A DNA stretch of 64,000 nucleotides. It comes from Nitrospinales bacterium (GTDB lineage: Bacteria; Nitrospinota; Nitrospinia; Nitrospinales; VA-1). Below the pieces are notes generated by a model. The model had not been told where the DNA came from and ran no database searches. It worked only from the letters and a program-made list of their open reading frames with translations. Shown here piece after piece: positions 1-6,790 of this stretch. Positions within the stretch are counted from its first letter, which is position 1. Each line of letters begins with the position of its first letter. The translations under genes were made by a program, and so were the position numbers. Where the stretch lies: NCBI GenBank assembly GCA_965262115.1, contig OZ253496.1, forward strand, positions 2,144,001 through 2,208,000, given 5' to 3'.

Positions 1-543
1 ATAGGAATGGGGGAAAAGCTCGATGCGTTGGAGCCGTTTCATCCTGATCGGATTGTTTCCCGCATTCTTGGCATGGGCGATGTCATGTCCCTGGTCGAAA
101 AGGCGGAAGAAAATTTCGAGCAGGAAGAGCAGGAAGAGCAGGAAAAGTTACAGAAAAAAATCAGGGCTAACGCTTTTACTCTGGAAGATTTTCGCGGCCA
201 GTTGAAACAGGTTCAGAAAATGGGGTCGATGGAGCAGTTGCTGAGCATGATCCCCGGTGCAGGAAAACTGGCGAAGGGTTTGAAAATCGATGACCGCGCT
301 TTTGTGCAGGTGGAGGCGATCATCAGTTCGATGACGCAGAGAGAACGCGAGAAGCACAACATCATCAATGCCAGCAGAAAGCGCAGGATCGCTCAGGGCA
401 GTGGTACCCGGGTGAACGATGTTAATAAATTGTTAAAGCAGTTTGCGCAAATGCAAAAGATGATGAAAAAGGCTGCCCGTGGCGGCGGCATGAACTTCGG
501 CAGTCTGATGGGCGGACGGGGTATGCCGGGCCGGTTCTTTTAA
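1..543 (+). CDS. ffh: Signal recognition particle protein Ffh, C-terminal part (5' truncated by window edge)
   Basis: GEKLDALEPFHPDRIVSRILGMGDV, an M-domain (FTLEDF...RRIAQGSG) and a Met/Gly-rich tail; lies upstream of rpsP. Confidence 0.96.
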   Translation: MGMGEKLDALEPFHPDRIVSRILGMGDVMSLVEKAEENFEQEEQEEQEKLQKKIRANAFTLEDFRGQLKQVQKMGSMEQLLSMIPGAGKLAKGLKIDDRAFVQVEAIISSMTQREREKHNIINASRKRRIAQGSGTRVNDVNKLLKQFAQMQKMMKKAARGGGMNFGSLMGGRGMPGRFF

Positions 544-616
544 ACGAGTTTTTATTGGATGCATTAATGCGGTTTATTGAGCCGCAAACATTTCGGGCCA
601 GACCCGAACAGTACCC

Positions 617-943
617 CTTGTATGTTGTTCATAAGGGGAATTTGTAGTAGTTGTACCTGTGAGCCCTGTGGGAAGCCGGTTTTGTGTTTTCCACAAGCTC
701 CCAGGATTTGATTCAGGGCACAATAGATCGTTTACCCCTTAGGCTTTTAAGCCCGTCCCGAAGCGCAGATCGTTGTGTCCTTGTATGTTGTTCATAAGGG
801 GAATTTGTAGTAGTTGTACCTGTGAGCCCTGTGGGAAGCCGGTTTTGTGTTTTCCACAAGGCTCACAGGGTTTGATTCAGGGCACAATAGATCGTTTACC
901 CCTTGGGCTTTTAAGCCCGTCCCGAAGCGCAGATCGTTGTGTC
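617..943 (+). repeat. Tandem duplication of the IS110 left end (617-779 and 780-943)
   Basis: Direct alignment of the 163- and 164-bp copies shows one indel and three substitutions. Confidence 0.95.
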
Positions 944-1012
944 CTATTTTGATTAACCCGAACAGTTGCCTGGGCCACTGAGCCCGCATCGGCAAGGCTG
1001 GGAGACCAAATT
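780..1012 (+). ncRNA. Bridge RNA, intact copy: 5' hairpin, target-binding loop (~879-945) and donor-binding loop (~946-1011)
   Basis: Stem AGGGCACAAT/GTTGTGTCCT encloses TTTACCCCT (895-903) and GTCCCGAAG (919-927), which match the target. A second loop holds ACAGTTGC (962-969) and GCAAG (992-996), which match the donor junction. Exact RNA ends are not known. Confidence 0.85.
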
Positions 1013-1963
1013 ATGAATCAGAAACCCCATTTTATTGGCATCGATATTTCTAAACTCCATCTGGATGTTGCTGACAGCATGACTCAAGAAACCTGGCAAA
1101 CCGCTAACAATGAGGAAGGGATTGCTGGTTTGGTCGAGAGTTTATCCGCCTTAAATCCTCCATTGATCGTTTTGGAAGCCACAGGCGGCTTAGAGATCCC
1201 GTTGGCTTCGGCCCTGGTTGCGGGTCGACTGCCAGTAGCCGTGGTCAACCCGCGACAAGTTCGTGATTTTGCCAAAGCCACCGGGAAACTGGCAAAAACC
1301 GATGTCATTGATTCTCTTGTGCTGGCCCATTTTGCCAAGGCCGTACGTCCTGAGGTCAGGAAAATCAAAGACGAAGAATCTCTTGAACTCTCAGCTCTGG
1401 TGACACGCCGTCGCCAGTTGATCGAGATGCTGACCAAAGAAAAAACCCGTCTAAAACAAGCTCCAAAATGGATATGTAAAGACATTAAGGAGCATATCGA
1501 ATCTCTTAAAAAACGCTTGCGAAAAATCGATGGCGACCTTTCCAGAACCATCAAAAACAGTTCTGCCTGGCGTGAGCACGACCAGATTATACAAAGTGTT
1601 CCCGGTGCCGGTCCCGTTCTGGCTGTCAACCTCTTGGCCGGGGTTCCGGAACTTGGAGTTCTTAATCAGAAGCAAATCGCCGCCCTCATCGGTCTCGCTC
1701 CCCTCAATCGGGACAGCGGAAAGTTCCGGGGCCGCCGGTGTATCTGGGGCGGCCGCGCCAATGTGCGTGCCGCTTTATACATGGCCGCCGTCACTGCCAT
1801 GCAGCATAATCCCGTGATTCGTACCTTTTACACACGCCTCATCGAAAAGGGCAAACCCTTTAAAGTTGCCATTACCGCATGCATGAGAAAGTTATTAACG
1901 ATCATCAATACCATGATCAAAACAAAAACACTCTGGAATGAAAATCTCATTACCAGCACTTGA
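1013..1963 (+). CDS. IS110-family recombinase/transposase
   Basis: RuvC-like DEDD residues in GIDISK, LEATGG and KTDVIDS; C-terminal NRDSGK serine motif and GGRANVRAALYM. Confidence 0.96.
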   Translation: MNQKPHFIGIDISKLHLDVADSMTQETWQTANNEEGIAGLVESLSALNPPLIVLEATGGLEIPLASALVAGRLPVAVVNPRQVRDFAKATGKLAKTDVIDSLVLAHFAKAVRPEVRKIKDEESLELSALVTRRRQLIEMLTKEKTRLKQAPKWICKDIKEHIESLKKRLRKIDGDLSRTIKNSSAWREHDQIIQSVPGAGPVLAVNLLAGVPELGVLNQKQIAALIGLAPLNRDSGKFRGRRCIWGGRANVRAALYMAAVTAMQHNPVIRTFYTRLIEKGKPFKVAITACMRKLLTIINTMIKTKTLWNENLITST

Positions 1964-1980
1964 CATTTAACACAGTTGCT
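1960..1980 (+). promoter_or_regulatory. -35 half (TTGACA, 1960-1965) of the circle-junction promoter; the -10 TATGTT lies at 621-626 (also 784-789)
   Basis: Joining the right end to the left end at CT gives TTGACA-17 nt-TATGTT. Confidence 0.85.
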
Positions 1981-2116
1981 TCGGGGCATGAAGACAAATG
2001 AAGGGATGTTACACGTGACGCTGGACTATAAGTAATAGTTTTGCTTGCGCATTATTTATTGGCGGGTGTTAACGCCATATATACCGGGATAAGCCCGTAA
2101 CCTAGGAGAAAGTACA

Positions 2117-2362
2117 TTGGCAGTTGTAATTCGATTAACTCGGCGAGGAGCAAAAAAGAAACCCTTTTACCGGATTGTGGCGGCGGATTCCAGGATGCCA
2201 AGAGATGGTAGATTTCTTGAAATTCTGGGAACCTACGATCCTCTGAATGATAAAGAGGGTTGTAAGGTTGACGCGGATAAAGCCATGGCTTGGATCAAGA
2301 AAGGCGCCAAGCCCAGCAAAACCGTGGGGTCCCTCTTCAAAAAAGCCGGGGTTGGTGTTTAA
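2117..2362 (+). CDS. rpsP: 30S ribosomal protein S16
   Basis: [36 protein letters not shown] start with AGGAG RBS. Confidence 0.97.
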
Positions 2363-6617: not shown

Positions 6618-6790
6618 TACCCCTGCGGGGCACGAAGTACCCGTGCCGGGCATGAAGTTTAAGGAAGAGGACATCACAGCTACGGAAGAATATTACGACA
6701 GCTAGCAAAGATATTTTCGACTCAACGAGTTATTGCCCTTTGGCAGCATGTTATGATCCCTCATCAGTCTTCATGCCCCGAAAGAGGTAC
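6618..6790. repeat. Cluster of REP-like palindromes TACCCCTNCGGGGCAYGAAG (6618-6637, 6638-6657, reverse 6767-6790)
   Basis: Same motif as the reconstructed IS110 target. Confidence 0.8.

Follow-up and report, generated by a model that had tools for sequence, protein, structure and literature searches.

A multicopy IS621-type IS110 element with a predicted bridge RNA and a dispersed repeat as its likely target in a Nitrospinales genome

Features of the locus

The window, a 64,000-nt stretch of contig OZ253496.1 from a Nitrospinales bacterium (GCA_965262115.1), encodes a recombinase of the IS110 family between the host genes ffh and rpsP (Table 1). The host genome is a single contig of 2.68 Mb.

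Table 1. Coordinates within the window of the host genes, the IS110 unit, the predicted bridge RNA and the target and donor sites.
Feature	Position	Strand	Remarks
ffh (SRP54) 3' end, upstream host gene	1..543	+	Pfam SRP_SPB, E 2.5e-36
Left target arm AGTACCC	610..616	+	Mini-repeat starts with TACCC (612-616); host DNA at 610-611
Extra partial left end, 163 bp, tandem copy	617..779	+	Contains the outer CT core, the right-donor arm, the 5' stem-loop and a target-binding loop
IS110 unit of 1201 bp, counting the CT cores at 780-781 and 1979-1980	780..1980	+	Termini common to full-length copies
Right donor arm TGTAT	782..786	+	Shares bases with the -10 box (TATGTT, 784-789) of the predicted junction promoter
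5' stem-loop of the predicted bridge RNA	819..869	+	19-nt arms, 89% complementary; folds
Target-binding loop module	880..944	+	Outer stem 880-893/932-944, inner stem 905-908/915-918
Left target guide TTTACCCCT	895..903	+	897-903 against TACCC-CT, 7/7; 895-896 mismatched at the studied site
Right target guide CCCGAAG	921..927	+	Complementary to CT-TCGGG, 7/7; variable repeat base read by A925
Target-loop handshake bases CG	928..929	+	C928 would pair with donor G1978 after strand exchange
Donor-binding loop module	957..1002	+	Outer stem 957-959/1000-1002, inner stem 972-975/982-985
Left donor guide ACAGTTGC	962..969	+	8/8 to ACAGTTG-C
Right donor guide ATCGGCAAG, discontinuous, IS621-like	988..996	+	992-996 with CTTGT; 988-989 with AT
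Donor-loop handshake bases GC	997..998	+	G997 would pair with target C616
IS110 recombinase, 316 aa	1013..1963	+	D11, E55, D97, D100, S235; wedge residues Y256, M257, V260
-35 box TTGACA of the predicted junction promoter	1960..1965	+	Overlaps the stop codon
Left donor arm ACAGTTG and right CT core	1972..1980	+	ACAGTTG 1972-1978, CT 1979-1980
Right target arm TCGGG (1981-1985) and remainder of the ~40-bp mini-repeat	1981..2013	+	Relatives lack these bases
rpsP (ribosomal protein S16), downstream host gene	2117..2362	+	Pfam Ribosomal_S16

The recombinase matches PF01548 (DEDD RuvC-like, 87.4 bits; cut-off 29), PF02371 (Tnp, 73.4 bits; cut-off 21.3) and the NCBIfam model for IS110 RNA-guided transposases (NF033542, 225 bits; cut-off 140). 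Its only matches among solved structures are IS621 (E 4e-30) and ISCro4 (E 6.8e-33, the best PDB match). D11, E55, D97, D100 and S235 align with the catalytic residues of IS621 and are invariant across 11 aligned sequences. With all five present, the DEDD-plus-serine active site appears intact, as the initial annotation had proposed.

The left end (782-1012, 231 bp) is much longer than the right end (1964-1978, 15 bp), a trait of the IS110 group, unlike IS1111; a much longer left end that holds the bridge RNA is the criterion given for the IS110 group (PMC11208160). No terminal inverted repeats of at least 10 bp linking the two ends of the element were identified. In all features of the group and of its bridge RNA that are open to sequence comparison, the element is an IS621-type member of the IS110 family. 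The architecture suggested at the outset is thereby supported.

The unit and its copies

The genome encodes 24 recombinase loci. The 316-aa gene is intact in 15, carries a common 10-bp deletion in seven and is broken in two; the broken pair is 87% identical to the element. There are 23 full-length copies, 21 of them with 98-100% identity (the studied copy included) and two with 87%. CT is present at both ends in 22 of the 23, and the remaining one has TT on the left.

In the initial annotation the element was bounded by CT at 617-618 and 1979-1980. Both dinucleotides are present, but the left boundary of the unit is 780: the full-length copies end at the same termini, so the unit is 780-1980, and 617 as its true left end is ruled out by the termini of the other copies. 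Comparison with other copies had been suggested as a check on the ends. All 23 full-length copies have the same ends, and their sites are the guide-encoded target. Flanking sequences differ among the copies, with 17 distinct on the left and 15 on the right. Four uninterrupted sites with the flanks of occupied ones were found, so the empty target can be reconstructed.

Several unusual forms were also identified. Two truncated left ends form an inverted (fold-back) pair at G000:C1:2519310-2519438, with a separate right-end fragment ~900 bp away, beyond an IS3 half. In a 5'-truncated copy at G000:C1:2034326 the 5' arm of the target loop is replaced by foreign sequence ending in TTTACCC, which looks like a fusion to a repeat flank. 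In run X6, from another population, the ffh-rpsP site is occupied by a related element that differs by ~3% and has a left end that starts differently (regions compared, 300-626 and 1964-2400 of the window). This occupancy may reflect either common ancestry with later conversion or an independent insertion.

The predicted bridge RNA

All motifs named in the initial annotation lie where it had placed them. These are the target and donor sequences (AGTACCC 610-616, CT 617-618, ACAGTTG 1972-1978, CT 1979-1980, TCGGGGC 1981-1987) and, within the left end, TTTACCCCT (895-903), GTCCCGAAG (919-927), ACAGTTGC (962-969) and GCAAG (992-996). To estimate chance, 782-1012 was shuffled 20,000 times with dinucleotides approximately preserved. 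The left target was matched at 7/9 or better in 33% of shuffles, the right target at 8/9 or better in 4.7% and the left donor at 8/8 in 0.65%; GCAAG was present in 28%. None of the 20,000 had the four matches together in order. Thus, single matches are weak evidence, and the ordered set is not explained by chance.

The right donor guide had been given as GCAAG. This segment does pair with CTTGT, but the guide extends over 988-996, which had been missed. G992 forms a wobble, and 990-991 are looped out; position 992 is A, which would restore Watson-Crick pairing, in relatives G013 and G045 and in run X6. The handshake bases and the junction promoter had likewise been overlooked; the handshake positions in Table 1 follow the definition in PMC11208158.

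Joining of the two ends creates TTGACA-17-TATGTT, a putative promoter that matches the consensus at 10 of 12 positions. No -35 box at that spacing was found at either integrated left end. The circle joint (1980 to 782) is absent from the contigs of four runs, and such contigs lose rare forms. A hit to Rfam sX15 on the minus strand was rejected as sub-threshold (35.4 bits versus 55).

The predicted RNA folds with a z-score of -3.1. Folding of the RNA by itself pairs the left donor guide with the right one, so the protein would have to hold the donor loop open; opening all guides costs ~10.6 kcal/mol.

The target repeat and its setting

The target is a ~40-bp repeat, TACCCCT-N-CGGGGCAYGAA...ATCAC, represented at this locus by 612-618 and 1981-2013. 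The genome holds 147 uninterrupted copies (N is A in 46, G in 38, C in 34 and T in 29), and the motif was not found in two shuffled genomes. Across the genus the count ranges from 0 to 352 copies. Further copies occur in the window at 6620 (+), 8658 (-) and 60302 (+). The repeat is often arranged in tandem with 41-bp spacing, or lies inside other hairpin repeats.

We examined the ffh-rpsP loci of 11 relatives, seven of which gave a readable intergenic stretch; the IS110 element was found in none of the seven. A search for empty sites in related genomes had been proposed initially, and G013, G007 and G001 provide them, with neither element nor repeat. In all three, exactly the 40 repeat bases are missing, as for a repeat inserted without duplication. 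We therefore infer that the repeat arrived first and that the IS110 element entered it afterwards. The recombinase itself is unlikely to have moved the repeat, since G007, with 92 repeats, gave no match to it at E 1e-60. No match to PF01797 (Y1/RAYT) was identified in the studied genome, which is 94% complete. An 11-bp match, ACCCGAACAGT, between the host flank (602-612) and the donor loop (956-966) is probably due to chance, because the host part exists in relatives that lack the element.

An IS3 element of ~1290 bp (G000:C1:695240-696529; L107:384-1283) carries the repeat near its orfA/orfB junction. Seven IS3 copies are free of IS110. Ten IS110 left ends abut IS3, so IS110 probably also spreads as a passenger. 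All seven copies with the 10-bp deletion adjoin IS3 on at least one side. Five copies (G000:C1, 1296052, 1418001, 1811279, 1896475 and 2013360) adjoin IS3 at one end only and unrelated sequence at the other, which we take as signs of chromosome rearrangement between IS110 copies.

These associations bear on whether the copies are relics, spread mainly via IS3 and by recombination between copies, with the present RNA or protein dead. Such a history would account for the single IS3 flank common to 10 of 26 left ends, for the deletion common to seven copies and for the several copies with IS3 on one side only. We consider it very unlikely, however, given the intact gene in 15 copies, the 17 left and 15 right flanks that are distinct and the 98-100% identity between copies. 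The recombinase element has apparently been active recently.

Guides and insertion sites within the genome

Among the 26 right ends in the genome, 23 are followed by TCGGGGC and two by GCGGGGC, and one lacks the variable base. The 23 T-type ends represent 13 distinct flanks, and T accounts for ~30% of repeats (52/172), giving a chance probability of ~2e-7. The two copies at G sites are the only ones in which A925 is changed to C. They represent one event (four differences in 1180 bp, with 227 bp of identical right flank), and both are broken. Over the 17 distinct left flanks, the left guide fits at positions -5 to -1 (T in 14, A in 14, and C in all 17 at each of three positions). It fits poorly at -7 and -6, where T occurs in seven and eight of 17; these positions lie outside the repeat. 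These observations suggest that the guide likely selects one of the four single-letter variants of the repeat.

Exceptions were identified. L137, with a protein 74% identical, occupies a T site although its discriminating guide base is U, and G013 has G at this position and sits in T. G016 also has G, and its five right ends are T, T, T, C and G (in a collapsed assembly); four of the five fit, provided that a G-T wobble is allowed.

An alternative is that the bridge system works, but that the choice of variant is partly set by a hairpin in the target (CCCC-TTCG-GGG), as in the dual-match logic described for ISPpu10. The core is located at the hairpin loop, and each of the 28 uninterrupted TACCCCTTCGGG sites in the genome continues with GCA and thus lies inside the repeat, so that sequence and structure are inseparable here. 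The T site of L137, used against its guide, fits a structural contribution, and a target stem-loop is reported to raise the efficiency of ISPpu10 (10.64898/2026.03.19.712850). On the other hand, copies with a C guide occupy G sites, G016 copies lie at TCGGGTA, CCGGGCT and TTGGGCT, sequences unlike the repeat beyond +5, and the same ISPpu10 paper describes base pairing as still required. We therefore regard a role for the hairpin in variant choice as unlikely, and favor selection by the guide.

Covariation in orthologues

Both ends and flanks were recovered for 46 of 80 loci in a genome orthologue set (22 families) and for 52 of 80 loci in a metagenome set (34 families). Guides score higher against their own targets than against permuted ones, with 8.4 of 14 versus 4.0 ± 0.3 (maximum 4.9) for genome families and 7.1 of 14 versus 3.2 ± 0.2 (maximum 3.8) for metagenome families (300 permutations each). 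The guide rule gave no guide in 3/22 genome and 10/34 metagenome families. One group with left target AAGTAGC (L008, L017, L141 and L179) has a left target guide ending in CC and a CT core; it escaped the rule because the guide ends in CC, not CT. Covariation was seen for the target, and the donor is nearly invariant across the set.

On the right side of the target, only +1 to +5 covary among well-matched families. The right guide is therefore 921-927 and the site 14 bases, as also reported for IS621 and IS622 (10.1101/2025.05.14.653916). The initial annotation had extended this guide over 919-927 with a G-U wobble. Its inner part stands, whereas the GT at 919-920 belongs to the conserved scaffold: matches at +6 and +7 occur in 2 and 2 of 14 and in 3 and 4 of 21 well-matched families, in contrast to 13-14 of 14 and 20-21 of 21 at +1 to +5. 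Since 919-920 does not covary with orthologue targets, the wobble was probably coincidental.

The covariation alignment covered the target and donor loop modules, outside the 5' stem-loop. In 20 orthologues, 96.6% of cells in the loop stems are paired and 14 of 24 pairs show two-sided changes, counts that are inflated by relatedness; the stem controls gave 0/500 for shuffles and 36-49% for slid positions. Compensatory changes occur in 9 of 13 outer and 3 of 4 inner pairs of the target loop (20 orthologues). In the donor loop, 100% of outer and 95% of inner cells are paired among orthologues. In 23 of 26 orthologues, with L041 counted as a miss, the donor-loop handshake base is the Watson-Crick partner of the base that precedes the core in the target. 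The initial proposal of an RNA-guided recombinase orthologue with its own target is supported, in that the copies sit at the site the guides appear to encode and the loops of orthologues track other targets.

The extra partial left end

The tandem left end at 617-779 lacks a donor loop and ends exactly at a CT. Its allele is one found in six other copies, and the full unit that follows begins with the other allele. The internal junction (617-779/780) is unique in the genome. The segment is most likely either a secondary tandem gain or an assembly error, and we think it somewhat probable that it is genuine. If real, it may have been produced by integration of a small left-end circle, or by a nested insertion and subsequent recombination. 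The matches to target and donor at 773-786 (left 3/7 and 1/7; right 0/7 and 2/5) give no support to a guided insertion there.

If the segment is an assembly artefact, for which the case is appreciable though somewhat weaker, the locus is one plain 1201-bp element. The contigs of runs X1, X3, X4 and X5 neither bridge the junction, among the contig pieces listed (four pieces are not shown), nor carry the private base A741. Contigs from X1 and X3 do carry a left end at the ffh-rpsP site. However, contigs lose rare forms, and the runs are possibly from other strains. The junction also lies exactly on a CT core, and the two left ends are two alleles of other copies, an outcome expected from one crossover with a small circle of the left end. 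Tandem non-coding units next to IS110 genes have, moreover, been published (n = 468; 10.64898/2026.08.14.744561).

A genuine segment would resemble these expanded IS110 loci (10.64898/2026.08.14.744561; 10.64898/2026.08.31.748434), which also have an extra non-coding unit beside the gene. The junction would be of the half-match kind: one donor arm, CT-TGTAT, is retained, and the opposite arm matches neither the left target guide (3/7) nor the left donor (1/7). The unit boundaries of the published loci are described as preferentially keeping the left-donor match, whereas the putative unit at 617-779 keeps the right-donor arm.

Proposed mechanism and significance

We conclude with high confidence that this IS110 element is of the IS621 type and present in multiple copies, and that a predicted two-loop bridge RNA from its left end likely guides the intact recombinase to NNTACCC-CT-TCGGG (14 bp) within the repeat. 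What was observed are the termini, the agreement of the guides with target and donor, the genomic copies and where they lie, the catalytic residues and the covarying stems; the steps below are modeled on IS621 (PMC11208160, PMC11208158, PMC13626964). The element would be excised, or copied, to a circle, in which the joined ends would build the TTGACA-17-TATGTT promoter and drive the bridge RNA from ~795. Pairing by four guides would then open the donor ACAGTTG-CT-TGTAT in one loop and the target in the other. Strands would be exchanged at the CT cores by the DEDD-plus-serine sites, assisted by the handshake pairs C928:G and G997:C. At this locus the element would have entered a T-type repeat in the ffh-rpsP interval, in the orientation of the operon. 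Because the element is oriented on the strand of ffh and rpsP and no terminator-like site was found in 500-2150, read-through transcription from the operon is possible and could supply RNA for excision, as reported for an integrated copy of IS621.

The repeat varies exactly at the base of its loop that is read by one guide base, which raises the question of a chase between guide and target in two selfish elements. Among uninterrupted repeats, the T variant makes up 29/147 in the studied genome, 37/131 in G045, 86/92 in G007 and 229/352 in G013, and the lineages carrying IS110 are the poorest in it. When occupied sites are counted too, the T share of the studied genome rises to 30%. Element remnants occur in G045, G013 and G007 alike. 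These counts come from relatives that are mostly fragmented assemblies, which lose IS copies, and that are not independent kin. Among element variants, all four bases (A, C, G and U) are represented at the discriminating position of the guide. We consider a chase improbable on present counts. If repeat variants do spread by escaping insertion, and single-base guide changes answer, this would be natural re-targeting of an RNA guide in progress. In the library searched we found no literature on coevolution or escape of bridge RNAs, judging by titles and the beginnings of abstracts.

Because four target variants coexist and the guide predicts the one used, the system provides a natural test of single-base specificity. 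It also offers, for orthologue screens, a distant (~30% identity) predicted bridge recombinase whose target, donor and guides are all fully defined. The nesting is of note, with IS110 within a 40-bp mobile repeat that is itself often within an IS3 element. Thousands of such orthologues are already published, and this one does not extend what is known of the mechanism. The set of Durrant et al. comprised 5,511 target-RNA pairs (PMC11208160), and a later study screened 72 orthologues (10.1101/2025.05.14.653916). Within the library searched for IS110 in Nitrospina, we did not find this element described; it may be among the orthologues in the supplement of Durrant 2024 or in the 72-orthologue screen.

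Comparison with known systems

The closest model is IS621 of E. coli (Durrant 2024, PMC11208160; Hiraizumi 2024, PMC11208158; PDB 8wt6). Both elements have a left-end RNA composed of a 5' stem-loop, a target loop and a donor loop, with guides in the order left target, right target, left donor, right donor. Also shared are the CT core, the right donor TGTAT, an 8-nt left donor guide, a discontinuous right donor guide with a G wobble, the handshake positions, the junction promoter (predicted here), DEDD plus serine, and a dispersed palindromic repeat as target. The proteins are ~30% identical (95 identities by eye in ~310 columns). The target is NNTACCC-CT-TCGGG rather than ATCAGGCCTAC, donor positions 6-7 are TG rather than AT, and the natural right target guide pairs over seven bases, versus four in IS621. 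A further difference from IS621 is that the target repeat is polymorphic between relatives.

ISCro4/IS622 (10.1101/2025.05.14.653916; PDB 9t56) is likewise reported to have 14-base target and donor recognition and handshake guides. ISCro4 is 88% identical to IS621 and has been tested in human cells, whereas the element described here is distant and known from sequence alone. ISPpu10 of Pseudomonas putida (10.64898/2026.03.19.712850) is similar as an IS110 element that enters many copies of one intergenic hairpin repeat, with a left guide that is tolerant distally and a strict right guide. The stem-loops differ: that of ISPpu10 is described as a 5' extension pairing with the left target, whereas in the Nitrospinales element it is a hairpin around the core.
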